From the NCBI RefSeq assembly GCF_035299005.1, contig NZ_DATGXL010000005.1, positions 5,756 to 69,755 on the forward strand: a stretch of 64,000 nt of DNA, written 5' to 3'. The position numbers were made by a program, and so were the translations under genes. Below are positions 13,107 through 58,661 of the stretch, in pieces. This DNA comes from Flavobacterium sp. (lineage in GTDB: Bacteria > Bacteroidota > Bacteroidia > Flavobacteriales > Flavobacteriaceae). Position 1 is the stretch's first letter. Each line of letters begins with the position of its first letter. The notes below the pieces were generated by a model. The model was not told the DNA's origin, made no database searches, and worked only from the letters and a program-made list of their open reading frames with translations.

Positions 13107-13903
13107 TATGGTAAAATTATTTTATAATTAGTAATTTCATTTTGGGTAAAAATAGCTAAAATTCCATCCGCAAAGAAAAAATTAGTAACGAAATTTTCAG
13201 CAATTTTAATTTTTAAATTCTTGTTGTTTTTAATTTCATAATAATACAGTTGATTTTCATGGCTATAGATTGCTATTTCGTCATTAATCAATTGAATTTT
13301 ATCAAAATTTGGTAACTCGCCAAGTGTTTTAATTGTTCCGTAAATTGAAATAGAGTAGAGCTTATTTTTAGTATCAAGCCAATAAAAATTGGTATAGTTT
13401 GAATGATAATATTTTACAGGGCTTTCCAAACTAGTTGTAATCCAATTAAGAGCATCATTTGTTAAATTATATAGTCCAATTTTTGAAGAGATTGTATCAA
13501 AAAACCATAATTTGTTTTGAGAAGATAATGCAATTGCTTCAACATTAACAGACTCAGATAAGAAATTAAAATTTATTTCTTTTATTTCATTTAATTGATT
13601 GTCTAATAAAATTGCAGTGTTGAAATCGTTATAAAAAACCACAATTTGCAATGGATTTTGAAAATCAACTCTCGAAATTTTTCCTAAACGCACATTTTTA
13701 TATTCAAAATGATTTTGTAAATGATTTTTTAAAAGAACATTGTCTTTTGTGGTATAGAAGTTTTGCTGGTTGTCAAATCCTAAAAATAGTTCAGCTTGTA
13801 TTTTAGTGCAATTGATTTTTTCTGTTAAAATTGTTTCTTGAGAAAACATGCTTTTAGCAAAAAGAAAAAGAAAACAAAATAACACAGCGTTTTTTCGTAA
13901 CAT
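13106..13903 (-). CDS. Exported hypothetical protein
   Basis: 265-aa ORF with a signal peptide; its stop overlaps the kinase start. Confidence 0.75.
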   Translation of the reverse strand: MLRKNAVLFCFLFLFAKSMFSQETILTEKINCTKIQAELFLGFDNQQNFYTTKDNVLLKNHLQNHFEYKNVRLGKISRVDFQNPLQIVVFYNDFNTAILLDNQLNEIKEINFNFLSESVNVEAIALSSQNKLWFFDTISSKIGLYNLTNDALNWITTSLESPVKYYHSNYTNFYWLDTKNKLYSISIYGTIKTLGELPNFDKIQLINDEIAIYSHENQLYYYEIKNNKNLKIKIAENFVTNFFFADGILAIFTQNEITNYKIILP

Positions 13904-21070: not shown

Positions 21071-22321
21071 TTATAGTTTAAAGGCAGTTTTTACTTTGTC
21101 TACAAAATCTAATTTTTCCCATGTGAACAATTCAACTGTTAATGTTTTTGTCTCGCCTCCAGGAGCAGAAAATGTTTTTGTTACTGTCTCAGGGGTTCTT
21201 CCCATGTGTCCGTAAGCAGCCGTTTCGCTGTAAATCGGATTTCTTAATTTTAAACGTTGTTCAATAAAGTACGGACGCATATCAAAAATGCTTTCTACTA
21301 CTTTACTGATTTCACCATCTGTTAAGTTCACTTTTGCAGTTCCATAAGTATTTACGTTGATTGATGTTGGTTCAGCAACACCAATTGCATAAGATACTTG
21401 TACTAAAATTTCATCAGCAACACCAGCTGCAACTAAATTTTTAGCAATATGACGTGTAGCATAAGCAGCAGAACGGTCTACTTTAGATGGGTCTTTTCCT
21501 GAGAATGCACCACCACCGTGAGCACCTTTTCCACCGTAAGTATCTACGATAATTTTTCTTCCTGTTAAACCAGTATCTCCGTGAGGTCCTCCAATTACGA
21601 ATTTTCCTGTTGGGTTAATGTGGTATTTAATCGCATCATTAAATAAATGAGCGTATTGAGGATTTTTAGCAATCACTCTTGGAATCAAAATTTCTATAAT
21701 ATCTTTTTTGATTTTCGCTAACATTGTTGGTTCGTCAGCAAAGTCATCATGTTGTGTAGAAACTACAATGGCATCAATACGAACTGGTTTGTTGTCATCG
21801 GAATATTCTAAAGTAACCTGAGATTTTGCATCCGGACGTAAGTAAGTGATTTCTTTGTTCTCTCTTCTTAAATCAGCTAAATCTTGTAATAACTGATGAG
21901 ATAATTTTAAAGCTAACGGCATGAACTCAGCAGTTTCATTTGTGGCATAACCAAACATCATCCCTTGGTCACCAGCACCTTGTTCTTCTTTGCTTGCTCT
22001 GTCAACTCCTTGATTAATATCTGCAGATTGCTCATGAATTGCAGATAAAACTCCACAAGAATTTGCTTCAAACATGTATTCGCTTTTCGTGTAACCAATT
22101 TTCTTGATTACATCTCTTGCGATAGTTTGTACATCTAAATAAGTGTTTGATTTTACTTCTCCAGCTAAAATTACCTGACCTGTAGTAACTAATGTTTCAC
22201 AAGCTACTTTTGACTCAGGGTCAAATGCTAAAAAGTTATCAATTAATGCATCTGAAATTTGATCCGCAACTTTGTCAGGATGCCCTTCACTCACTGATTC
22301 TGACGTAAATAAATAAGCCAT
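21071..22321 (-). CDS. metK: S-adenosylmethionine synthetase
   Basis: [51 protein letters not shown]. Confidence 0.97.
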
Positions 22322-22606: not shown

Positions 22607-23494
22607 ATGGTTAAAAAACTACTTTCTTTTAGCTTTTTGTTAGTATCGCTAACATTTCAAGCGCAAAATTTAATTAGCGAAGGTTTTGATACTTATGCTA
22701 ATTTAGCGACTTCTGGTTGGACATCAACTAATCAAAGTACTGTTATTGGAACTAACCCAGATTGGTTTCAAGGGAATCCTGTAGCTAGTGGAGGCCCTTT
22801 TGACTCCTATGTTGGGGCTACTAATTCTTATGTTGCATGTAATTATAATAGTACTGCTGGAGCCAATACGATTAGTAATTGGTTAATGACTCCTGTGGTT
22901 AGTCTTGTTAATGGAGATGTTATCACTTTTTATACAAGAACTGTCACTTCACCTGCATATGCAGATAGGTTACAATTAAGAATTAGTACTAATGGAGCGG
23001 CTTCAGCTAACCCAGTTGGTGCAACAGGAGTTGGTGATTATACCACTTTAGCTTTAGATGTAAATCCATCACTAGTTGCTTCAAGTTATCCTAATGCATG
23101 GACTCTGTATAGTTATACGGTTTCTGGTTTGCCAACAGCTACTAATTGTAAAATTGCATTTAGATATTTTGTTACAAATGGAGGTCCTTCTGGAGCTAAT
23201 TCAGATTATATTGGAGTTGATTCATTTTCTGTAGATAGACCGTTAAGCTCTGATTCGTTTTTTAAAAATAATTTTTCACTATATCCTAATCCTGTTAATA
23301 ATGTGCTAAATATTTCTATAAAAAATGAATTGTCCATTACTAAATTGACAATTACTGATATAAATGGAAGAATCGTGATTTCAGAATCTTCAGTAATTAA
23401 TTCTTTAAATGTTTCAGATTTATCATCGGGTATATATTTAGTATCTATTGAAACGAATGAAGGAAAAGGGACTGCTAAATTTGTAAAAAATTAA
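22607..23494 (+). CDS. T9SS type-A cargo protein with choice-of-anchor J (cleaved-adhesin-like) domain
   Basis: Signal peptide; TISNWLMTP, ADRLQLRIST, YIGVDSF; CTD FSLYPNPV...GIYLVSI...KFVKN. Confidence 0.85.
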   Translation: MVKKLLSFSFLLVSLTFQAQNLISEGFDTYANLATSGWTSTNQSTVIGTNPDWFQGNPVASGGPFDSYVGATNSYVACNYNSTAGANTISNWLMTPVVSLVNGDVITFYTRTVTSPAYADRLQLRISTNGAASANPVGATGVGDYTTLALDVNPSLVASSYPNAWTLYSYTVSGLPTATNCKIAFRYFVTNGGPSGANSDYIGVDSFSVDRPLSSDSFFKNNFSLYPNPVNNVLNISIKNELSITKLTITDINGRIVISESSVINSLNVSDLSSGIYLVSIETNEGKGTAKFVKN

Positions 23495-23514
23495 AAGATA
23501 TTTTACGTAATTTA

Positions 23515-23549
23515 AAAGAAAAAAGAGGCTTTTGCTTCTTTTTTCTTTT
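23515..23549 (+). terminator. Intrinsic terminator
   Basis: aaagaaaaaagaggc-tttt-gcttcttttttcttt. Confidence 0.75.
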
Positions 23550-23668
23550 ATAATAGATTTTATTTTTGTTATTTATTGTTTTATATGAATAAAAATCTAT
23601 AAAATTGTTTTAAAATAACAAAATTTAGAAAAATAATCTATTTATTTTTTTATTTTAGAAAATAAATC

Positions 23669-23676
23669 TAATTTTG
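23669..23676 (+). promoter_or_regulatory. -7 promoter element for the metY leader
   Basis: TAATTTTG 25 nt upstream of the leader ATG. Confidence 0.65.
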
Positions 23677-23701
23677 CTCCATCAAATTAAAAGAAATAAA
23701 A

Positions 23702-23776
23702 ATGAACTTTACAATTTGCTATATCTGTATGACAATGTGGAATAATCCGCAGAGGTATTGTATTGCATATTTTTAA
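23702..23776 (+). CDS. Cys/Met-rich attenuator leader peptide (24 aa)
   Basis: MNFTICYICMTMWNNPQRYCIAYF; contains gcagaggt, complementary to the downstream terminator stem. Confidence 0.75.
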   Translation: MNFTICYICMTMWNNPQRYCIAYF

Positions 23777-23797
23777 AGAAACTTAAATAATCAATAT

Positions 23798-23826
23798 AAC
23801 CTCTGTCTAAAGCAGAGGTTTTTTAT
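23798..23826 (+). terminator. Attenuator terminator of the metY operon leader
   Basis: aacctctg-tctaaag-cagaggtt followed by T4. Confidence 0.85.
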
Positions 23827-23844
23827 TTCTAATAACACAACAGT

Positions 23845-23895
23845 ATGAAAATAGCAATTTACAATCCAAGACGATGTTGTCGAATGTGTAGCTGA
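23845..23895 (+). CDS. Second Cys-rich uORF (16 aa)
   Basis: MKIAIYNPRRCCRMCS, between the attenuator and metY. Confidence 0.5.
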   Translation: MKIAIYNPRRCCRMCS

Positions 23896-23958
23896 ATCAA
23901 ACTCAGTAAAATCAAAAAAATACATTTAAAAACACAATAACATCAAAAATAAAATATC

Positions 23959-25251
23959 ATGAGCACAAATAAATTTGCAACAAACGCATTACACGCAGGA
24001 CACGACATAACTAAAAATGGAGGAACAAGAGCCGTTCCAATTTACCAAACTACTTCCTACGTGTTCAATAACTCAGACCACGCTGCCAATCTTTTTGGTT
24101 TAGCCGAAGCTGGTTTTATTTATACAAGATTAAATAATCCAACAAACGATATCTTAGAAAAACGTTTAGCTAAATTAGAAGGCGGAATCGGAGCTGTCGT
24201 AACCGCTTCAGGAACTGCTGCTATTTCAACTGCTTTATTAACATTATTAAAAGCGGGCGACCATATAGTAGCTTCTAACAGTTTATATGGCGGAACATAT
24301 AATTTATTAAATGTGACTTTGCCAAGATTAGGCATCACCACAACATTTGTTGATCCATCAAATCCAGAAAATTTCTTAAATGCAGCTCAAGAAAATACCA
24401 GAGTGTTCTTCGCCGAAAGTTTAGGAAATCCAAAATTAGATGTACTCGATTTAAAAGCCATTTCAAAAGCCGCACAAACCTACAAAGTGCCTTTTATTGT
24501 GGATAACACAGTGGCAACACCCTTTTTGCTAAACCCAATCGAACACGGAGCTAACATCGTCATTCATTCATTAACGAAATACATCGGTGGAAACGGAACT
24601 TCGCTTGGAGGTGTTATCATTGATGCAGGAAATTTTGACTGGAGCAACGGAAAATTCCCAGAATTCACAGAACCTTCTGCAGGTTATCACGGATTGAAAT
24701 ATTATGAAGTATTAGGTGCAGCTTCGTTCATAGCAAAAGTTAGAATCGAAGGTTTACGCGATTTAGGTGCTGCTTTGAGTCCATTTAATGCATTTCAAAT
24801 TATTCAAGGATTAGAAACATTGGCTATCCGAATCAAAAAGCATAGTGAAAATGCTTTGGAATTAGCGAAATGGTTGCAAAAACGTTCAGAAGTGGCTTGG
24901 GTAAATTATCCAGGATTAATTTCTTCAAAATATTATGATTTAGCCCAACAATATTTACCAGAAGGACAAAGTGGTATCGTAACTTTTGGATTAAAAGGCG
25001 GTTATGAAGCCGCTAAAAAAGTAGCTGATGAGACTCAATTTTTCTCATTATTAGCGAATATTGGTGATACAAAATCATTAATCATTCATCCTGCAAGTAC
25101 TACGCACCAACAATTGTCAGAAGAACAACAAATTACAACTGGAGTAACGAAAGATTTAATACGTTTATCAGTTGGATTAGAAGATATTGAAGACTTGAAA
25201 ACCGATTTACAAAGTGTTTTCGAAAAATTGCCAGTTCAAAATTTAGTTTAG
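23959..25251 (+). CDS. metY: O-acetylhomoserine aminocarboxypropyltransferase/cysteine synthase (OAH/OAS sulfhydrylase)
   Basis: IYTRLNNPT, HSLTKYIGG PLP lysine, LANIGDTKSLIIHPASTTHQQL, IRLSVGLE. Confidence 0.92.
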   Translation: MSTNKFATNALHAGHDITKNGGTRAVPIYQTTSYVFNNSDHAANLFGLAEAGFIYTRLNNPTNDILEKRLAKLEGGIGAVVTASGTAAISTALLTLLKAGDHIVASNSLYGGTYNLLNVTLPRLGITTTFVDPSNPENFLNAAQENTRVFFAESLGNPKLDVLDLKAISKAAQTYKVPFIVDNTVATPFLLNPIEHGANIVIHSLTKYIGGNGTSLGGVIIDAGNFDWSNGKFPEFTEPSAGYHGLKYYEVLGAASFIAKVRIEGLRDLGAALSPFNAFQIIQGLETLAIRIKKHSENALELAKWLQKRSEVAWVNYPGLISSKYYDLAQQYLPEGQSGIVTFGLKGGYEAAKKVADETQFFSLLANIGDTKSLIIHPASTTHQQLSEEQQITTGVTKDLIRLSVGLEDIEDLKTDLQSVFEKLPVQNLV

Positions 25252-25266
25252 GTTTTTGTTTGTTTC

Positions 25267-25311
25267 AAAGACTGCCAATAGTTCGCACCTAAAGGCAGTC
25301 TTTGTTTTTTT
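25267..25311 (+). terminator. Intra-operon hairpin between metY and metX
   Basis: aaagactgcc-N17-ggcagtcttt followed by gT7. Confidence 0.6.
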
Positions 25312-25319
25312 AAAGAAAA

Positions 25320-26285
25320 ATGTGTAAGATTCAAAAGTTCGTATTTAATACTGTTCCATTGCAAAATGGAGTAGTACAATCAAAAGTGATTTTGTCCTAT
25401 CAATTGTTTGGTCAATCTATTGGTTCGGCTCCTTTGGTAGTGGTGAATCATGCTTTGACAGGAAATTCGCAAGTTATTGGTGAAAACGGTTGGTGGCAAT
25501 CCTTAATTGGTGATGATAAAATTATCGATACCAAAAAATATGCAGTTTTAGCTTTCAATATTCCCGGAAACGGCTATCAAGACAAAGAAAATTTGATTGA
25601 AAATTATCAAGATTTTACAAACCACGATATTGCTAATTTATTCTGGAAAGGAATTGATTCGTTTAAAGTGAATCAAGTTTTTGTAGTCATTGGCGGAAGT
25701 TTAGGCGGTGCAATTGCATGGGAAATGGCAGGAATTCGACCAAAAGCGATTTCAAATTTAATTCCAGTAGCAACAAATTGGAAAGCTTCTGATTGGTTGA
25801 TTGGAAATGTGTTAATTCAAGATTTGATTCTGAATAATTCCAAAAATCCAATTTACGATGCTCGAATTCACGCTATGTTATTGTATCGAACATCTGAATC
25901 ATTACAAGAAAAATTTAACACCAAATTGCAAAATTCAGAAGGATTGTTTCAAGTAGAAAGTTGGTTGTTGCATCACGGAGAAAAATTGCAAAATCGATTT
26001 CAACTTTCGGCCTACAAACTCATGAATCATTTATTGAAAACTACGGATATTTTTAAAAGCAACAATAAATCAGATGTCATCAAAAGTATCTCGTCAAATA
26101 TTCATCTAATAAGTGTGGACACAGATTACTTTTTTACGGCAAACGAAATCAAAACGGCTTTTCAAGAAGTCAAGAATTACAAAAACAACGCATTTTATCA
26201 CGAAATCAAATCCATTCACGGACACGATGCTTTCTTGATAGAATTTGAACAATTAAACAACATACTAAAACCTATATTTAATTAA
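25320..26285 (+). CDS. metX: Homoserine O-acetyltransferase family (alpha/beta hydrolase)
   Basis: NHALTGNS, GGSLGG nucleophile elbow, SIHGHDAFLIE. Confidence 0.85.
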   Translation: MCKIQKFVFNTVPLQNGVVQSKVILSYQLFGQSIGSAPLVVVNHALTGNSQVIGENGWWQSLIGDDKIIDTKKYAVLAFNIPGNGYQDKENLIENYQDFTNHDIANLFWKGIDSFKVNQVFVVIGGSLGGAIAWEMAGIRPKAISNLIPVATNWKASDWLIGNVLIQDLILNNSKNPIYDARIHAMLLYRTSESLQEKFNTKLQNSEGLFQVESWLLHHGEKLQNRFQLSAYKLMNHLLKTTDIFKSNNKSDVIKSISSNIHLISVDTDYFFTANEIKTAFQEVKNYKNNAFYHEIKSIHGHDAFLIEFEQLNNILKPIFN

Positions 26286-26375
26286 GATGAAATCGCTCAC
26301 AGAACTTTTTGCGAAAGCAAAATCCAATAAAAAAGCGATACCATTTTTTACCACTGAAAAATAAAATCTAAAAAA

Positions 26376-28790
26376 ATGAAAATATTAAAATTTGGAGGAA
26401 AATCATTAGCAAACGGAGAAGGATTGCAAAAAGTAATTCAAACGATTGCTCAAAAATATTTCAATAGCGAACCCATTGCAGTCGTAGTTTCGGCAAGAGG
26501 AAATGCTACAGACGAATTGGTAATTTTACTAAAAAAAGCGCAAGCCAACATCAGTTTTCAAGCAGATTTTGAGCAATTCAAAAAATACCAATTGGAAGGC
26601 TTGAAAGAAAACATATTTGAAGAAGAATTCTCAGTTTTACAAAAGTTATTAGAGGGTGTTTCGCTTTTAGGAGATTACAGCGAAAAAATCAAAGATCAAG
26701 TCATTGCGTATGGCGAAATTCTATCCGCAAAATATGTAGCTTATGTGTTGAATGAGAACAGCATTAAAGCACAATTTTCAGATGCGCGACAATTGATAAA
26801 AACGGATATAAATTTTGGAAATGCACAACCAATTGACGCTGTTTCAAAGCGAAATGTCTTGGATTATTTCGAAAAAAACACAGATAAAGTCAACATTGTA
26901 ACTGGTTTTATAGGTTCAACGTTACACAACGAAACCACTACTTTAGGAAGAAATGGTAGTAATTACACCGCTTCATTATTAGCGAATTACTTAAACGCTG
27001 AAGAATTTCAAAATTTCACACACGTTGACGGAATTTTCACCGCCAACCCAGATTTAGTTGCTGATGCAAAAAAAATCGAGCGATTATCGTTTAACGAAGC
27101 GAATGAGTTAGCAAATTTTGGAGCACAAATTTTACATGCCAAAACCATCATTCCTTTGGTGGAAAAAAACATTCCGTTGCGCATTTTAAACACCTTCAAT
27201 CCAGAAAGTGAAGGAACTTTAATCACTTCCGAACAAACCAATGAAGGGATCAAATCGCTTTCGGTTTTAACCAATGTGTCGTTGATTAATTTAGAAGGAA
27301 GAGGTTTATTAGGAAAAACTGGTGTAGATGCGCGAATTTTTCGAGTAATGGCTGAAAACGATATTAGTGTTAGCATCATTTCACAAGGTTCTTCGGAAAG
27401 AGGAATTGGTTTGGTAGTGAGTTCTGATAAGGCTTCCAAAGCATTAGTTGGTTTGGAAAAAGAATTTGAAACCGATTTTTATACGAAAGATGTCAATAAG
27501 ATTTCGGTAAACGATAATATTGCTGTGATTTCGATTATTGGGCAAGATTTAACCAATTTTCATAAACCATACACGGCTTTAATCCGAAATAAAATCACAC
27601 CAATTTTGTTGAATAATACAGTTACGGGAAGAAATATCAGTTTGGTGATCAGTCAAGATGAATTCAAACGCGCTTTAAATGTGATTCACGGCGAAATTTT
27701 TGGAGTAGCGAAAAAAATCAACATCGCTATTTTCGGTCACGGTACGGTTGGTGGAACTTTGATTTCCCAAATTTTAGAATCCGCAAAAAACATTGAAAAG
27801 CGAAAAGGAATCAAGCTGAATGTATTTGCGATTGCGAATTCAAAGAAAGTATTGTTGAATAAATTCGGAATTAGCGAAAATTGGAAAGCAACTTTAGAAG
27901 ATAAAGGGCAAGATTATAAAGTGGAAGATATTATTGGGTACGCGAAAGAACATCATTTGGAAAATTTAATCGCGATTGACAACACCGCCAGTTCGACTTT
28001 TATTGAAAATTATATTTCGCTTGCTGAAAATAGTTTCGATTTGATTTCGTCAAATAAAGTCGCCAATACAGTAAGTTATGATTTCTATAAAAAGCTGCGA
28101 AAAGTCTTAAAAGATAACCAAAAAGAATATCTATACGAAACCAATGTTGGTGCAGGTTTGCCTCTAATTGATACGATAAAATTACTGCATTTGTCAGGTG
28201 AAAACATCACCAAAATTAAAGGTGTTTTCTCTGGGACATTAAGTTATTTGTTCAATAATTTTTCAGTTGAAAACAAAAAATTCAGCGAAGTATTGCAAGA
28301 AGCCATCGATAAAGGTTTCACCGAACCCGACCCAAGAGAAGATTTAAACGGAAACGACGTTGGACGAAAATTATTAATCCTAGCTCGCGAATTAGATTTA
28401 CAAAACGAATTTGAAGAAATCCAAATTCAAAATTTAATTCCAGAGGCTTTACGTGAAGGAAGCGCAACGGATTTCTTAAAACGCTTATCAGAATTAGACG
28501 GAATTTATCAAAACATCAAAGACGCTCAAGGTCCAAATGAAGTGTTGCGTTACATTGGAGAATTATCAGGCGATTTGCAACAAGACAAAGGAAAATTGGA
28601 AGTAAAATTAATCTCAGTTTCAGCCAATTCTGCTTTAGGTTCGTTAAAAGGTTCGGATTCTATTTTCGAAATTTATACTGAATCTTATGGAGAACAACCA
28701 ATCGTAATTCAAGGCGCAGGAGCTGGAGCATCCGTAACTGCAAGAGGCGTTTTTGGCGATATTTTACGTTTATCTGAAAAAAAATTATAA
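26376..28790 (+). CDS. thrA: Bifunctional aspartate kinase/homoserine dehydrogenase
   Basis: KFGGKS, TTLGRNGSNYTA, ACT domains, GHGTVGG, YLYETNVGAGLP, TEPDPREDL, GAGAGASVTA. Confidence 0.92.
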   Translation: MKILKFGGKSLANGEGLQKVIQTIAQKYFNSEPIAVVVSARGNATDELVILLKKAQANISFQADFEQFKKYQLEGLKENIFEEEFSVLQKLLEGVSLLGDYSEKIKDQVIAYGEILSAKYVAYVLNENSIKAQFSDARQLIKTDINFGNAQPIDAVSKRNVLDYFEKNTDKVNIVTGFIGSTLHNETTTLGRNGSNYTASLLANYLNAEEFQNFTHVDGIFTANPDLVADAKKIERLSFNEANELANFGAQILHAKTIIPLVEKNIPLRILNTFNPESEGTLITSEQTNEGIKSLSVLTNVSLINLEGRGLLGKTGVDARIFRVMAENDISVSIISQGSSERGIGLVVSSDKASKALVGLEKEFETDFYTKDVNKISVNDNIAVISIIGQDLTNFHKPYTALIRNKITPILLNNTVTGRNISLVISQDEFKRALNVIHGEIFGVAKKINIAIFGHGTVGGTLISQILESAKNIEKRKGIKLNVFAIANSKKVLLNKFGISENWKATLEDKGQDYKVEDIIGYAKEHHLENLIAIDNTASSTFIENYISLAENSFDLISSNKVANTVSYDFYKKLRKVLKDNQKEYLYETNVGAGLPLIDTIKLLHLSGENITKIKGVFSGTLSYLFNNFSVENKKFSEVLQEAIDKGFTEPDPREDLNGNDVGRKLLILARELDLQNEFEEIQIQNLIPEALREGSATDFLKRLSELDGIYQNIKDAQGPNEVLRYIGELSGDLQQDKGKLEVKLISVSANSALGSLKGSDSIFEIYTESYGEQPIVIQGAGAGASVTARGVFGDILRLSEKKL

Positions 28791-28803
28791 CCACCCAAAC
28801 TCC

Positions 28804-28837
28804 AAAACCTGCAAAATGTAAAAGTCTTGTGGGTTTT
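28804..28837. repeat. Imperfect REP-like palindrome
   Basis: aaaacctgcaa...ttgtgggtttt arms pairing with G-U wobbles. Confidence 0.4.
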
Positions 28838-28882
28838 ACACTTTAACAGTTCAACGACTAAACAATTCAACAAACAAAAACC

Positions 28883-30055
28883 ATGAGTAACCAAAATTTA
28901 GGATTAGAAACCCAAGCCATCAGAACGCAATTAGAACGTACGCAATATTTAGAACATTCCGTTCCGTTATATCTAACTTCCAGTTTTATTTTTGAAGATG
29001 CGGAAGACATGCGTGCTTCTTTTGCAGAAGAAAAAGAACGCAATATTTATAGCCGATTTTCCAATCCCAATACATCTGAATTTGTTGAGAAAATTTGTTT
29101 GATGGAAGGAGCAGAAGACGGCTACGCTTTCGCAACCGGAATGGCAGCGGTGTATTCTACTTTTGCTGCTTTATTGAATTCGGGCGATCATATTGTTTCG
29201 GCGAGTAGTGTTTTTGGTTCGACACATACTTTGTTCACCAAATATTTTCCGAAATGGAACATCACCACTTCGTATTTCGATGTCAACAAACCAGAAACAA
29301 TTGAAAATTTCATTCAACCAAATACAAAAATACTTTACGCGGAATCACCAACCAATCCAGCAGTTGATATTCTAGATTTAGAATTGTTGGGTAAAATTGC
29401 CAAAAAACACAATCTGATTTTAATCATCGATAACTGTTTTGCGACTCCTTACATTCAAAATCCAATTCAATTTGGAGCCGATTTAGTGATTCATTCTGCA
29501 ACCAAATTAATCGATGGTCAAGGTCGTGTTTTAGGTGGAGTAACCGTTGGGCGTTCTGATTTAATTCGTGAAATTTATTTGTTTTCTCGCAATACCGGAC
29601 CTGCTTTGTCGCCTTTTAATGCTTGGGTGTTGTCAAAAAGTTTAGAAACGTTGCCAGTTCGTATCGAAAAACATTCCGAAAACGCTTTAAAAGTTGCCGA
29701 ATTTTTAGAAAACCATCCGAATGTTGCTTCCGTAAAATATCCATTTCTAAAATCGCATCCACAGTATGAAGTCGCTAAAAAGCAAATGAAATTAGGCGGA
29801 AATATTGTAGCGTTTGAAATTAAAGGAGGAATTGAATCAGGAAGAAAGTTTTTAGATAAAATCAAATTATGTTCCTTATCTGCGAATTTAGGTGACACAC
29901 GTTCGATTGTTACACACCCAGCTTCCACAACTCATAGTAAATTGACTGAAGAAGAACGTTTAGCAGTAAGCATTACAGATGGTTTAGTTCGCGTTTCGGT
30001 TGGTTTAGAAACGGTTCAAGATGTAATCAATGACTTAAAGCAAGCGTTAGAATAA
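28883..30055 (+). CDS. Trans-sulfuration PLP enzyme (MetZ/MetB-type sulfhydrylase or cystathionine gamma-synthase)
   Basis: IYSRFSNP, FATGMAA, HSATKLIDGQGR, ANLGDTRSIVTHPASTTH. Confidence 0.88.
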   Translation: MSNQNLGLETQAIRTQLERTQYLEHSVPLYLTSSFIFEDAEDMRASFAEEKERNIYSRFSNPNTSEFVEKICLMEGAEDGYAFATGMAAVYSTFAALLNSGDHIVSASSVFGSTHTLFTKYFPKWNITTSYFDVNKPETIENFIQPNTKILYAESPTNPAVDILDLELLGKIAKKHNLILIIDNCFATPYIQNPIQFGADLVIHSATKLIDGQGRVLGGVTVGRSDLIREIYLFSRNTGPALSPFNAWVLSKSLETLPVRIEKHSENALKVAEFLENHPNVASVKYPFLKSHPQYEVAKKQMKLGGNIVAFEIKGGIESGRKFLDKIKLCSLSANLGDTRSIVTHPASTTHSKLTEEERLAVSITDGLVRVSVGLETVQDVINDLKQALE

Positions 30056-30070
30056 AAGTTTTTAAATTAT

Positions 30071-30124
30071 TTTATAGATTTATATTCTTAATTAATATTA
30101 AAAAACGGAATATAAATCTATAAA
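30071..30124. repeat. Perfect 17-bp inverted repeat with 20-bp spacer upstream of the SAM-I promoter
   Basis: tttatagatttatattc (30071-30087) and gaatataaatctataaa (30108-30124). Confidence 0.85.
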
Positions 30125-30178
30125 TAATATTTATTTAATGAAATTTCAGAAAATATTTCATTATTTCAATTTTGTCAC

Positions 30179-30186
30179 TACATTTG
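30179..30186 (+). promoter_or_regulatory. -7 promoter element for the metH-metF operon
   Basis: TACATTTG 23 nt upstream of the SAM-I P1 helix. Confidence 0.7.
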
Positions 30187-30209
30187 CAGAGTTCATAAAC
30201 ATACTGTTT

Positions 30210-30311
30210 GTTATCACGAAAGCTGGAGGGAATAGACCCTGCGAAAGCTTAGCAACCCTACACTTGTAGAAGGTGCTACATTCTATTTCGATTTTATCGG
30301 AAGCAGATAAC
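30210..30311 (+). promoter_or_regulatory. SAM-I riboswitch
   Basis: P1 gttatc/gataac; GGAGGGA..gaccc..GAAAG P2; AGCAACC...AAGGTGCT P3; P4 ttcgat/atcgga. Confidence 0.92.
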
Positions 30312-30409
30312 CTAAGGAAATTTTTTTCCAATTTCTTGATAACATATTAATAATATAAACTTTGTGAAACTCTGTGAAAACTTAGCGTAACTCTGTGTAA
30401 CAAAAAAAT

Positions 30410-31402
30410 ATGTCAAAAATTCAAGAAGAAATCAAAAAACGAATTCTCGTGCTTGACGGAGCTATGGGAACGATGTTACAACGTTATAAATTTGAAGAAG
30501 AAGATTTCAGAGGCGAGCGCTTCAAAGATTTTCCGCATCCATTAAAAGGAAACAACGATTTGCTTTCCATTACCCAACCAGAAGCTGTAAAATCAGTTCA
30601 TCGTGCTTATTTTGAAGCAGGTGCTGATATTGTAGAAACGAATACTTTTTCGGGAACTACTATTGGAATGGCGGATTATTATTTGGAAGATTTAGTCTAC
30701 GAACTGAATTTTCAATCCGCAAAAATCGCTCGTGAAGTAGCAGACGAATTTACTGATAAGCTAAGATTTGTAGCTGGTTCTATAGGTCCAACCAACAGAA
30801 CAGCATCAATGTCACCAGATGTAAACGACCCAGGATTTCGTGCGGTGAATTTTGATGATTTAAAAATCGCTTACAAACAGCAAGTAGAAGCTTTAATAGA
30901 TGGTGGTTGCGATTTACTTTTGGTAGAAACTATTTTCGATACGTTAAATGCAAAAGCCGCTTTGTTTGCAATTGAAGAAGTGAAAGATGAGCGAACCATT
31001 GATATTCCTATAATGGTTTCCGGAACTATTACGGATGCTTCGGGAAGAACATTATCGGGACAAACGGTTGAAGCTTTTTTAATTTCGATTTCACATATTC
31101 CATTGTTGAGTGTTGGGTTTAATTGCGCTTTAGGAGCTGATCAATTGAAACCATATTTGAAACGTTTAGGAAATAATACCTCATTAAATATTTCGGCACA
31201 TCCCAATGCAGGTTTGCCAAATGCTTTCGGGCAATACGACCAAACGCCTGAGGAAATGCAACAATTAATTCGTGAATATTTACAGGAAAATTTAGTAAAT
31301 ATTATCGGCGGATGTTGCGGAACAACCCCAGATCACATCAAATTAATAGCTGAGGTAGCAAAAGAATTCAAACCTAGAACGCAACAATTGAAATCCGTTT
31401 AA
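30410..31402 (+). CDS. Methionine synthase homocysteine-binding module (split MetH, N-terminal part)
   Basis: [26 protein letters not shown] zinc ligands. Confidence 0.93.
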
Positions 31403-31432: not shown

Positions 31433-31573
31433 ATGAAAAACAGAACAATAAAAATACAATTCGAATCATTTTTAAATTCACAACGATGTTGGGTTTGCCA
31501 ATATGTTAGTGATAGTAAAACCTTTTGGAAGGATGTTGCAAAACACTATAAAAGAATAAGTAATGAGTTATAA
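31433..31573 (+). CDS. Small CxxC peptide between the MetH halves (46 aa; not in the ORF track)
   Basis: [46 protein letters not shown]; overlaps the metH start by 11 nt. Confidence 0.4.
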
Positions 31574-34235
31574 TTCCGATAAATATTTAAAATTATCAGG
31601 TTTAGAACCTTTGATTGTAACTCCAGAAACCAATTTTGTAAACGTTGGAGAACGAACAAACGTAACTGGTTCTAGAAAATTTCTTCGATTGATTAAAGAA
31701 GAAAAGTACGATGAAGCGCTTTCGGTTGCACGCGAACAAGTAGAAGGTGGCGCGCAAATCATCGATGTCAACATGGATGAAGGAATGTTAGATGGTGTTT
31801 ATGCAATGACAAAATTCCTAAATCTAATTGCTGCCGAACCCGATATTGCTCGAGTTCCTGTTATGATTGATTCTTCAAAATGGGAAATTATTGAAGCGGG
31901 TTTGAAAGTCATTCAAGGAAAAGGCGTGGTGAATTCGATTTCTCTAAAAGAAGGAGAAGCTACTTTTATTCATCATGCTAAATTAATCAAACGATACGGA
32001 GCAGCTGTAATTGTTATGGCTTTTGATGAAAAGGGTCAGGCTGACACATACGAAAGACGTATTGAAATTTGTAAAAGAAGTTACGATATTCTGGTGAACC
32101 AAGTAGGTTTTCCAGCAGAAGACATCATTTTTGATCCCAATATTTTTCCAGTTGCAACTGGAATGGAAGAACACAAACTAAATGCTTTAGATTTCTTCCG
32201 AGCAACCAAATGGATTCGCGAAAATCTTCCGTATGCAAATATTTCTGGAGGTGTGAGTAATGTGTCCTTTTCTTTCCGTGGAAATGATAAAGTACGTGAG
32301 GCGATGCATTCTGCCTTTTTGTATCATGCCATTCAAAACGGAATGACAATGGGAATTGTAAATCCAGAAATGTTAGAGATTTATGATGAAATCGATAAAA
32401 ATCTTTTAGAACATGTTGAAGATGTTTTATTAAACAGAAGAGAAGATGCTACAGAACGTTTGCTAGATTTAGCCGAAAGTTTCAAAGGTGATGTAAAATC
32501 AAATGAAAAAGCTATTGCCGAATGGAGAAATGGTTCGGTTCAAGAACGATTAACGCATTCATTAGTGAAAGGAATTGACGAATTTATCGAAATTGATGTG
32601 GAGGAAGCACGCCAGTTGGTTGAAAAACCTATAGAAGTTATCGAAAATCATCTTATGAACGGAATGAATGTGGTTGGTGATTTATTCGGAAGAGGAAAAA
32701 TGTTCTTGCCACAAGTAGTAAAATCAGCTCGTGTAATGAAAAAAGCGGTGGCTTATTTACTTCCTTATATTGAAGCTTCAAAAGATGGAAAATCTTCTTC
32801 GGCTGGAAAAGTATTGATGGCAACTGTAAAAGGCGATGTACATGATATTGGTAAAAATATTGTTTCAGTAGTTTTAGCCTGTAATAATTTCGAAATTATT
32901 GATTTAGGTGTGATGGTTCCGCCAGAAAAAATTATTGAAGTTGCGGTTAAAGAAAATGTAGATATTATTGGTTTGAGCGGTTTGATTACACCTTCGTTGG
33001 ACGAAATGGTGTATTTGGCCAAAGAAATGGATAAGTTGAACATCAAAATTCCAGTTATGATTGGCGGTGCGACAACTTCCCGTGCGCATACGGCTGTGAA
33101 AATTGCGCCAGAATATAAAGAAACTGTGGTTCATGTGAATGATGCTTCTCGTGCGGTAACGGTTGCAACCAATTTATTGCAACCAGAGACTAAAATTACT
33201 TATGCTAAATCACTTCGTGAAGAATATGATACGCTTAGAGAAGGGTATTTGAATAGAAGTCGTGAGAAAAATTTCTTATCGATTGAAGAAGCGCGTAAAA
33301 ATAAATTCAAAATCGATTGGAATACGTTCGAACCGGTAAAACCAAATTTCATAGGAACCAAAACCATTGAAGTTGAACTATCGGAATTAGTAAATTTCAT
33401 CGATTGGACCCCATTTTTTCAGTCTTGGGAATTGTATGGAAAATTTCCAGCGATTTTAGCTGATGAAATTGTAGGTGAACAAGCGACGAATTTGTTTGAA
33501 GATGCACAAAAAATGCTTGCTCAAATTGTTTCGGAAAAATGGTTTTCTGCCAAAGGAATTTTAGGAATTTTTCCAGCCAATACAATAAATGATGATGATG
33601 TTGAGGTTGTCACTTCAAACGAAGTTGAGAAATTTTTGACGCTTCGTCAACAATCACAAAAAACTGCTGGAGCTCCAAATATTGCTTTAGCCGATTTTAT
33701 AACCCCAAAAGAAATTGGGAAACGAGATTATATAGGATGTTTCTGTGTGTCAACCGGTTTTGGAGTGGATGAGAAAGCTTCGGAATTTGAAAAACAATTA
33801 GACGATTATAATTCGATTTTGGTAAAAGCTTTGGGAGATAGATTAGCAGAAGCTTTTGCGGAATATTTGCATTTAAAAGTTCGTAAGGAAATATGGGGTT
33901 ATGCTTCTGATGAGGTATTGTCTAACGAGGAATTAATCAAAGAAGAATACAAAGGAATTCGTCCTGCTCCAGGTTATCCTGCTTGTCCTGACCATTTAGA
34001 AAAACCAACGATTTGGAAATTATTAAAGGTAGAGCAAGAAATAGGAGTAAAGTTAACTGAAAGCATGGCGATGTGGCCAGCGTCATCGGTTTCAGGTTAT
34101 TATTTTGCGAATCCAGAAAGTAAATATTTTGGTTTAGGAAAAATTAAAAAAGACCAATTAGAAGATTACGCCAAAAGAAGAAATATTAGTATTGAACAAG
34201 CCGAAAAATGGCTCTCACCCAATTTAGCAGATTAA
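31563..34235 (+). CDS. metH: B12-dependent methionine synthase (pterin-binding, cobalamin-binding and reactivation domains)
   Basis: [52 protein letters not shown]. Confidence 0.95.
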
Positions 34236-37247: not shown

Positions 37248-38075
37248 ATGGAAGTTAAAGTCGCAATTCAGGGAATTCAAGGGTCATTTCATCATCAAGT
37301 TGCACATCATTATTTTGGAGAAGCAATTATTTTGGATGAGTGTGGTTCATTTAGAGAAGTTGTAAACAGTCTAAAGAATAATCAATCTGGCAAAGCAATT
37401 ATGGCGATTGAAAATTCGATTGCAGGCGCTATTTTGCCTAATTATGCTTTAATCGATTCAAATGATTTGCACATTATTGGTGAATATTTTTTGGATATTC
37501 ATATGAATTTGATGGTATTGCCCGGTCAAAAGATCGAAGATGTTAAGGAAGTACATTCGCATCCAATTGCCTTGTTGCAATGTGCTAATTTCTTCAACCA
37601 ATACCCACATATCAAATTGGTAGAAAGTTCTGACACTGCAATTACCGCAAAACGTATTCAAGAAAATCAATTAAAAGGAATTGGTGCTTTGGCTGGACCA
37701 GTTGCTTCCGAAATTTACAATTTGGAAATTATCGCTGACGGAATTCACACTGTAAAAAGTAATAAAACACGATTTGTGGTTTTAAAAGCGTCCAACAAAG
37801 AAATTTCGAAAGGACTTATTAATAAAGCATCGATAAAATTTGAATTAGATGATACACCGGGTTCATTGGCAACCGTTCTAAATGTGTTGAATAATTGCAA
37901 ATTGAATCTAACAAAAATTCAATCATTACCTATTATAGAGGCACCTTTTACTTATGCGTTTTTTGTTGATGTGGTTTTTGAAAAATATAAACATTTTGAA
38001 AAAGCGAAAAAAGTAATGGAAATTATGACAACACATTTCAAGGTTTTGGGCGAATATGAAAGAAGTAAGCAATAA
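37248..38075 (+). CDS. pheA: Prephenate dehydratase
   Basis: IQGIQGSFH, AIENSIAG, SHPIALLQC, NKTRF, ACT domain LTKIQS.P. Confidence 0.92.
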   Translation: MEVKVAIQGIQGSFHHQVAHHYFGEAIILDECGSFREVVNSLKNNQSGKAIMAIENSIAGAILPNYALIDSNDLHIIGEYFLDIHMNLMVLPGQKIEDVKEVHSHPIALLQCANFFNQYPHIKLVESSDTAITAKRIQENQLKGIGALAGPVASEIYNLEIIADGIHTVKSNKTRFVVLKASNKEISKGLINKASIKFELDDTPGSLATVLNVLNNCKLNLTKIQSLPIIEAPFTYAFFVDVVFEKYKHFEKAKKVMEIMTTHFKVLGEYERSKQ

Positions 38076-58085: not shown

Positions 58086-58661
58086 ATGAGTCACTTTGTA
58101 ATTGAACAGTGGAAAGAATATTTTATTCAAGTACCAGGAAAGGTTAAGTATGCCGTATCAAATTATGGCAGACTTAAAAGCTTTACTGATACAATTGAAA
58201 ATGGAAAAATTTTAAAAGGCGCTCCAACAGAAGGTTTTCTTTTTTTACGATATGTTAGAATATCTAATGGTGTAAAGAAATTCTATTTTCATGCTATTCA
58301 TAAAATGGTTGCCGAACTTTTTTTACCAAAGGAAAGTGAAGATCAAGAATACGTTTTACATTTAGATTATGACAAAATGAACAATCAATTGTATAATCTA
58401 AAATGGGCAACTTATGAAGAAATGCGTGCTCATGCTCATAAAAGTCCAGCCGTAAAAGCGGCTTTTAAAAAATTTCAAGAAGATAATATTAAACGCGATG
58501 GTAGAAAATTAACCTCTACTCAAGTAATGCGAATTAAGTTAAAAATGAAGCGTCAAGGTGAAAAATTCAGCGTTAGAAAAACCGCAAAAGAATTTTCTGT
58601 TTCAGAAATGCAAATCTATCGAATAAAAAGAGGTGAAAATTGGGGACACATACAAGTTTAA
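58086..58661 (+). CDS. NUMOD4 + HNH-like + C-terminal HTH protein
   Basis: EQWKEY...YAVSNYGRLKS (NUMOD4); HKMVAELFL...VLHLDYDKMNNQLYNLKW (HNH_3-like); KEFSVSEMQIYRIKRG.NW HTH. Confidence 0.8.
   Translation: MSHFVIEQWKEYFIQVPGKVKYAVSNYGRLKSFTDTIENGKILKGAPTEGFLFLRYVRISNGVKKFYFHAIHKMVAELFLPKESEDQEYVLHLDYDKMNNQLYNLKWATYEEMRAHAHKSPAVKAAFKKFQEDNIKRDGRKLTSTQVMRIKLKMKRQGEKFSVRKTAKEFSVSEMQIYRIKRGENWGHIQV

Follow-up and report, generated by a model that had tools for sequence, protein, structure and literature searches.

Phased box arrays at two methionine promoters of a Flavobacterium, putative operators of an Lrp/AsnC-type regulator

The methionine locus and its two box arrays

The window analyzed here, a 64-kb stretch of DNA (64,000 nucleotides) from a Flavobacterium sp. 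(contig NZ_DATGXL010000005.1), carries a cluster of methionine genes. It is preceded by metK (21071-22321, minus strand, behind an S-adenosylmethionine (SAM)-II riboswitch) and by a gene for a protein secreted through the type IX secretion system (T9SS), with a choice-of-anchor J domain and a Por_Secre_tail (22607-23549 including a strong canonical terminator at 23513-23549). After this terminator follow metY, metX, the gene for a bifunctional aspartokinase-homoserine dehydrogenase (thrA), a metZ-like gene, a SAM-I riboswitch, a split metH, and metF. An earlier note on this DNA had drawn attention to an inverted pair of short sequence arms before both methionine operons, metY-metX-thrA-metZ and metH-metF, and had taken it for the binding site of a trans-acting sulfur or methionine regulator that adds DNA-level control to the RNA switches. 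Here, we describe the box arrays to which this pair belongs and weigh which protein might bind them.

The arms with their spacer, ATAGATTT-N32-AAATCTAT, occur in the window only at 23553-23600 (site 1, before metY) and 30074-30121 (site 2, before the SAM-I riboswitch and metH), even when one mismatch is allowed, and shuffled windows held a mean of 0.01 matches, with two matches in none of 100 shuffles. The identical spacing before both operons is confirmed, and direct reading returns the reported distances of 66 and 55 bp to the respective -7 boxes. The 8-mer AAATCTAT alone is not enriched (12 copies against 8.9 expected in the window). The 17-mer GAATAWAAATCTATAAA has exactly three copies there, at 23587 (plus strand), 30071 (minus strand), and 30108 (plus strand); the 17-nt arms of site 2 (30071-30087 and 30108-30124) repeat each other in inverted orientation without a mismatch, around a loop of 20 nt, and the left arm of site 1 matches its right arm over about 9 nt only.

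The unit of repetition is not the 8-N32-8 inverted pair that had been proposed but a 15-bp semi-palindromic box, repeated three to four times before each operon. Seven boxes of the window align to a single semi-palindrome with an AT-rich center, tAGAA-W5-(A/T)TCTa. The arms described earlier are the outermost boxes of each array, Y1/Y2 at metY and H1/H2 at metH, and copies of the same motif nearer to the promoters (centers 23633, 23663, and 30154), which are the best-conserved ones, had been overlooked.

The metY array consists of four boxes centered on 23561, 23592, 23633, and 23663, with spacings of 31/41/30 bp. Its distal box Y1 (TAGATTTTATTTTTG, 23554-23568, minus strand) holds the left arm of site 1 and lies 31 bp from Y2 (ATGAATAAAAATCTA, 23585-23599, plus strand), which holds the right arm and scores 17.8 bits with the position weight matrix (PWM) introduced below. 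Y3 (TAGAAAAATAATCTA, 23626-23640, plus strand) is 41 bp from Y2, at about -48 from the inferred start site, and Y4 (TAGAAAATAAATCTA, 23656-23670, plus strand), a further 30 bp on, overlaps the first 2 nt of the -7 box of the operon (TAATTTTG, 23669-23676, plus strand), which reads directly as Bacteroidetes-type. The metH array has three boxes centered on 30082, 30113, and 30154 (31/41 bp). H1 (TAGATTTATATTCTT, 30075-30089, minus strand), the distal box with the left arm of site 2, begins 20 nt past the metZ stop codon; H2 (CGGAATATAAATCTA, 30106-30120, plus strand; TAGAATATAAATCTA in most relatives) carries the right arm 31 bp away; and H3 (CAGAAAATATTTCAT, 30147-30161, plus strand), 41 bp from H2, sits at about -37, overlaps the expected -33 element, and lies 25 bp upstream of the -7 box of the SAM-I/metH/metF operon (TACATTTG, 30179-30186, plus strand), a reading of the sequence that is conserved in the alignment. 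The consensus of flavobacterial sigma-A promoters is TAnnTTTG (PMC9723704).

All of these spacings are whole helical turns, so that along the roughly 90-120 bp of an array all boxes point to the same side of the double helix. The difference between 66 and 55 bp reflects a shift of the whole metH array toward its promoter by one helical turn, compared with the metY array. The arrays span about -120 to -10, and their innermost members fall on the core promoter, where Y4 abuts and overlaps the -7 box and H3 covers the expected -33 element. At the metK/SAM-II promoter, a PWM scan of the window returned no box of at least 9 bits between 22446 and 22606.

Conservation of the boxes among relatives

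With the aspartokinase-homoserine dehydrogenase protein as query, a scan that took a single genome for each species returned 42 related loci, mostly from Flavobacterium, with that of F. celericrescens (L005) among those of the closest relatives. Throughout about 20 Flavobacterium species, Y3, Y4, H3, and the -7 boxes hardly vary, and H1/H2 persist with their 32-nt arm spacing around a 20-nt spacer that varies freely. For Y1 and Y2, conservation is at the level of motif matches only (Y1 as TAGAtt..TTTTC, Y2 with the consensus GAAAAATAWTCTA), which is the pattern expected of binding sites. Further afield, Y3 is identical in L024, L025, L027, and L040, and the overlap of Y4 with the -7 box recurs in L024, L040, and L118. 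The distant Flavobacterium species that have no metY (L024-L027) retain both Y3 and Y4 before metX. H3 is the most widely conserved metH box; it reads TAGAAAATATTTCAT in close relatives and TAGAAAATATTTCTA in L022, and is also present in L024-L027, L035, and L040.

With a box PWM trained on the window's own sites, the spacings between neighboring matches at the met promoters of the genome loci were 30 bp (n = 21), 31 bp (20), 32 bp (1), 41 bp (23), and 72-73 bp (7), and none other; those of 72-73 bp are sums of single steps. Arrays elsewhere combine the same steps, with 31/41 bp in Aurantibacter (L033), 41/30 in L040, 31/41/30 in L118, and 30/41 in L054 and L140. The density of PWM matches at the met promoter regions is 99 times that in the remaining ~770 kb of the genome loci. 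Neither a motif common at unrelated AT-rich loci nor one lost in relatives, two outcomes that the earlier note had named as fatal to its own reading, is thus what we found. Shuffles and cross-species conservation together rule out a chance or low-complexity origin of the pair, and a mobile element or miniature inverted-repeat transposable element is ruled out as well, given fixed orthologous positions, variable spacers, and no further copies in the window. Judged by this conservation, the arrays are very probably operators bound by a protein.

The surroundings of the metY array differ among species. In the window and a few relatives (L002, L005, L006, L014, and L019), but in no others, metK and metY are separated by the T9SS-secreted protein gene and its terminator. 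The remaining species have metK and metY apparently adjacent and divergent, and Y1/Y2 are present in either arrangement.

The putative regulator and rival readings of the arrays

No specific regulator gene was found in the window by Pfam scans of 20 mostly small open reading frames (ORFs) and NCBIfam scans of ten met-cluster genes, whose only finds were an HU-like protein and one of the HNH/NUMOD4 type that matches HTH_7 weakly; together with tblastn searches, in which E. coli Lrp/AsnC and flavobacterial Lrp-like proteins served as queries, these scans agree with what had been noted before. The ORF with the NUMOD4, HNH_3, and weak HTH_7 matches (58086-58661) resembles a homing endonuclease.

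Metagenomes were scanned for contigs with two boxes 30-31 bp apart (TAGA-W7-TCT-N16/17-TAGA-W7-TCT), which yielded at least 120 matching contigs with 755,594 nt. These include orthologues of the window sites (L082, L086, L121, and L160) and metY or metX promoters of other Flavobacteriia (L054, L140, and L118, the last with a Met-rich leader peptide after its boxes). Among the matches listed, all 16 Lrp/AsnC-like genes lie within 104 nt of a box pair that is always 5' of the gene, and 10 of the 16 face a Cys/Met enzyme dependent on pyridoxal 5'-phosphate (PLP) across the boxes. The regulator-PLP intergenic regions carry arrays of 41/31 bp in L103, L108, and L152, 42/31 in L158, and 41/30/30 in L110; read from the regulator gene, the order is as at metH, with a distal pair 31 bp apart and then 41 bp to the proximal box. 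The same divergent gene pair is found in annotated genomes by protein look-up, which is independent of the DNA pattern. One such locus, L164, has five boxes spaced 31/31/31/41 in an intergenic region of 156 nt, and the window-trained PWM picks out three boxes about 31 bp apart in this region and nothing else in 8.4 kb. A gene for a META-domain protein starts 4 nt past the stop codon of the AsnC-type regulator (4463-4882 in L163-L166); this arrangement is conserved, and the two genes apparently share an operon.

Also among the matches listed are about 24 human-gut contigs with a box pair some 150 bp upstream of a metF homologue, and the same type of control may on this evidence extend beyond the Flavobacteriaceae. 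The gut pair reads TAGATAATAATTCT-N16-TAGAATAATTATCT at 8229-8272 of L090 and is seen also in, e.g., L043, L049, and L058, on contigs of about 41% G+C.

The targets of the Lrp family are groups of imperfect semi-palindromes that face the same side of the helix at intervals of two or three turns, where dimers bind cooperatively and about 100 bp of DNA is wrapped (PMC2995911). A 13-15-bp AT-centered semi-palindrome present in several imperfect, helically phased copies agrees with this type, and box shape, clustering, and phasing together with the gene association in metagenomes point to Lrp/AsnC as the probable family. Local regulators of this family are typically divergent from their target, and MdeR of Pseudomonas putida responds to L-methionine (PMC8707732). 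The best candidate, which we put forward tentatively, may be a conserved Flavobacteriaceae protein of the AsnC type encoded divergently from the Cys/Met PLP enzyme. It has 152 amino acids, combines an HTH_AsnC-type with an AsnC_trans_reg domain, shares 37% identity with E. coli Lrp, and has Lrp as its best NCBIfam match, below the equivalog cut-off; close homologues are widespread in Flavobacterium and Polaribacter. The divergent enzyme belongs to the cystathionine gamma-synthase/methionine gamma-lyase family, with all NCBIfam matches below equivalog cut-offs. Two runs that hold the window sequence, X1 and X4, contain a contig collinear with the regulator-PLP locus, with short collinear matches only at the regulator locus; its depth is 32.7 against 31.3 for the window in X1 and about 5 against about 6 in X4. 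A syntenic contig at matching depth makes it probable that the source organism has the gene pair.

Several points weigh against assigning the arrays to an Lrp/AsnC regulator, and to this candidate in particular. Tblastn detected no Lrp/AsnC gene in the window, nor in the 42 genome loci up to 10 kb from the met cluster; these loci were searched for Lrp/AsnC and Rrf2 genes only. Matching contig depth is what suggests the candidate's presence in the source organism, and with several Lrp/AsnC paralogues in flavobacteria the PLP-adjacent one need not be the paralogue that acts on the two met operons. The PWM derives from sites of the window itself, orthologous sites are non-independent observations, and the metagenome scan pattern was derived from met promoters, so that orthologous matches are to be expected. 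The E. coli Lrp consensus is yAGhAwATTwTdCTr and AGAATwwwATTCT (PMC5554404), from which the boxes differ by 1-4 mismatches in 15 (H1 by 1 in 13); the AT-rich window has 59 sites with at most 2 and 409 with at most 3 mismatches, which makes the consensus too common in this DNA to carry weight as family proof on its own. The 41-bp step amounts to four turns, beyond the two or three quoted for the family (PMC2995911). Other metagenome box pairs adjoin XRE/CI-type phage repressors and an RpiR gene, so the box-pair pattern alone cannot identify the family.

Site 2 has another reading, in which the inverted repeat at 30071-30124 would mainly be an RNA hairpin that terminates or stabilizes the metY-metX-thrA-metZ transcript, its likeness to site 1 being secondary. 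The repeat starts 16 nt past the metZ stop codon and folds at -17.9 kcal/mol (z = -5.6), and no other terminator was found between metZ and the metH promoter. The 17/17 complementarity of H1 and H2, which includes the asymmetric box center and the flanks, also exceeds what two independent operators need. However, the 17-pair helix shows no covariation across 20 species, being 93.5% paired against 93.2% with shuffled partners, with 1 compensatory cell against 22 broken ones, and the arms diverge from each other in L003, L004, L013, and L016, most of which still keep the box consensus. The clear terminators at 23513-23549 and 23798-23826 look different: the stem at site 2 is nearly all A-U (2 G-C pairs in 17), closes a loop of 20 nt, and lacks a U-tract, and a terminator scan of 29900-30450 returned no terminator-like site. 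Site 1, moreover, has a canonical terminator immediately before it and shows no folding advantage over shuffles (z = -1.3), and a hairpin would leave Y3, Y4, H3, and the 31/41 phasing without explanation. In the absence of covariation and of the usual terminator features, a metZ terminator, which the earlier note had itself named as the simple alternative, is not the main explanation, and pairing as such is not conserved; we consider this reading very improbable, and site 2 may secondarily help to end metZ transcripts. The 17-nt symmetry of H1/H2 is itself retained in most of the ~20 aligned species.

If the arrays are operators, they could serve a regulator of another family (LysR/MetR-like, TetR/McbR-like, Rrf2/CymR-like, or XRE-type), which would leave the phased arrays and the control of both operons unchanged and which we regard as unlikely. 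The core AGAA-N5-TTCT resembles the TGAA-N5-TTCA of E. coli MetR and the TAGAC-N6-GTCTA of Corynebacterium glutamicum McbR, generic box pairs also stand beside XRE/CI-type and RpiR genes in metagenomes, and in Kordia and Aurantibacter loci the met and cys genes have an Rrf2 gene as a neighbor. Yet no gene of these families adjoins a met-type array in any examined locus, three to five sites over 90-150 bp at three-/four-turn phasing are typical of Lrp/AsnC oligomers, and the consistent neighbor of the array on Flavobacteriaceae contigs, also beside the Cys/Met enzyme, is AsnC-type. The two families that had been suggested as plausible at the outset are not favored. Rrf2 genes turned up in no loci but those of Kordia and Aurantibacter, where they adjoin cys genes and a palindrome of another kind, TTCC(C)TA...TAGG(G)AA, and the Kordia met operons have no comparable box array. 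As for LysR, the box reads A-N11-T / T-N13-A and not T-N11-A, the array extends from about -120 to -10 in place of a -65/-35 pair, and no helix-turn-helix regulator was found in the scanned window ORFs. Tandem 8-bp AGACGTCT repeats of the MetJ type are absent from both promoters. A third possibility, that a global leucine-type Lrp binds the boxes and that the met operons are two of many feast/famine targets, draws on the resemblance of the box to the E. coli global Lrp consensus and on the best NCBIfam match of the candidate. Strong phased arrays, however, occur only at met promoters in the window and ~780 kb of related loci, the annotated neighbors among the metagenome matches listed are metF, metY, metX, and Cys/Met PLP enzymes, and other biosynthetic genes of the window, e.g., pheA at 37248, have no array; we give a global Lrp little credence.

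The Rrf2 genes are followed, just 3' and before the next gene, by palindromes of their own, TTCCTATTAAGTCGATAGGAA at 19250-19290 of L033 (Aurantibacter) and TCCCTACTAAAACCATAGGGA at 14330-14360 of L038 (Kordia), likely operators of that Rrf2 regulator. In L038, the palindrome is followed by DUF2061 and a 3'-phosphoadenosine-5'-phosphosulfate (PAPS)-reductase gene.

Proposed control at initiation and elongation

Both operons carry RNA-level control downstream of their arrays. The metY leader (23702-23826, plus strand) has a Met/Cys-rich peptide ORF at 23702-23776 followed by an intrinsic terminator at 23798-23826. The peptide reads MNFTICYICMTMWNNPQRYCIAYF in the window, MNFTMCNMCMMMWNNPQR in relatives, and MNNSVIKMMQMMVMQMMH in L031; GCAGAGG within its ORF can pair with the 5' arm of the terminator (23798-23820), which is followed by a T-run. 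The leader has no match to an Rfam family and looks like a classic leader-peptide attenuator that would sense methionine (and cysteine) codons. A second small ORF, MKIAIYNPRRCCRMCS at 23845-23895, stands between the attenuator and metY, its DNA almost invariant in ~20 species; in L040 and L118, a comparable second Met-rich ORF is followed by its own terminator, and the attenuators may be arranged in tandem. The metH array is followed by the SAM-I riboswitch (30208-30313, plus strand; Rfam RF00162, 75.3 bits). Further on, ahead of the metH start codon, a 21-nt unit is directly repeated in tandem at 30357-30398 (AAACTTTGTGAAACTCTGTGA / AAACTTAGCGTAACTCTGTGT). The split MetH is encoded by a homocysteine-binding ORF (30410-31402) and a pterin/B12/activation ORF (31563-34235) separated by a gap of 160 nt, as in most related loci. 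Directly 3' of the metZ-like gene in L038, a Kordia metagenome-assembled genome, about 14 tandem copies of GTATTCA are found at 13610-13710.

Taken as a whole, the arrays are probably operators for a methionine-linked Lrp/AsnC regulator encoded outside the window. From the reading given at the outset, this keeps the conserved DNA-level sites at the met operons, their place on top of the RNA switches, and a trans-acting regulator whose gene lies outside the window; the proposed unit and the extent of the sites have had to be replaced, and the likely family differs. A multimeric Lrp/AsnC regulator would bind boxes Y1-Y4 and H1-H3 cooperatively as several dimers, probably with the DNA wrapped around the oligomer, and the bound oligomer would set transcription initiation of both met operons. 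More speculatively, methionine or a close metabolite would be the effector, and the liganded protein would occlude the promoter. The SAM-I riboswitch at metH and the Met/Cys leader-peptide attenuator at metY would then act on elongation. With Y4 and H3 on core promoter elements, repression at abundant effector is the simplest reading. Methionine-dependent repression of the biosynthetic operons, argued from analogy, is nonetheless somewhat doubtful, and activation from the upstream boxes would for this family be equally possible.

Known Lrp/AsnC arrays, such as those of E. coli Lrp at ilvIH and pap, Sulfolobus Ss-LrpB, and Pyrococcus FL11, likewise consist of phased imperfect semi-palindromes over about 100 bp, with boxes that overlap promoter elements, targets in amino-acid metabolism, and the same array at the regulator's own promoter, as seen for the putative regulator in relatives and metagenomes. 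In contrast to these systems, the flavobacterial arrays have a 31/41(/30) signature that includes a four-turn step, belong to Bacteroidetes -33/-7 promoters, and come on top of a SAM riboswitch and a leader-peptide attenuator. The MdeR-mdeAB system of Pseudomonas putida shares with the candidate locus an Lrp-family gene divergent from a Cys/Met PLP enzyme and the link to methionine. It belongs to another phylum, however, with distant family-level similarity only, and MdeR is known as a local activator of catabolism, whereas the flavobacterial boxes are also found at the unlinked biosynthetic operons metY-metX-thrA-metZ and metH-metF. As with MetJ and MetR of Gammaproteobacteria, McbR of Corynebacterium, and MtaR/CmbR of streptococci, several met operons have repeated operators near their promoters. 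The logic resembles that of the MetJ met-box tandems, but box sequence, geometry, and protein family differ: MetJ binds tandems of the 8-bp AGACGTCT, MetR binds TGAA-N5-TTCA, and McbR binds TAGAC-N6-GTCTA. To our knowledge, MetJ, MetR, McbR, and MtaR/CmbR have no known members in Flavobacteriia.

As far as we know, nearly all descriptions of how Bacteroidota control their methionine genes concern SAM riboswitches. The literature searched, with curated regulon databases outside its scope, held no description of a flavobacterial methionine regulator or of the box motif, nor of a Lrp/AsnC member for methionine biosynthesis in Bacteroidota. On the sequence comparisons presented here, it is conceivable, though still tentative, that Flavobacteriaceae and possibly gut Bacteroidales have a methionine-specific Lrp/AsnC regulator that acts on three to five boxes in a fixed 31/41-bp code and coordinates metY-metX-thrA-metZ, metH-metF, its own gene, and a divergent Cys/Met gamma-lyase/synthase-like gene. 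If true, the regulatory map of the Bacteroidota, a large phylum of ecological importance, would gain a missing piece, a conserved layer of transcription-factor control with a candidate that can be named, and the box model permits the prediction of regulons in Flavobacteriaceae genomes. The spacings of 31/41/30 bp would represent a natural Lrp-type "spacing code" testable by mutagenesis, and a single pathway would be controlled by three mechanisms in series, a transcription factor, a SAM riboswitch, and a Met-codon leader-peptide attenuator.

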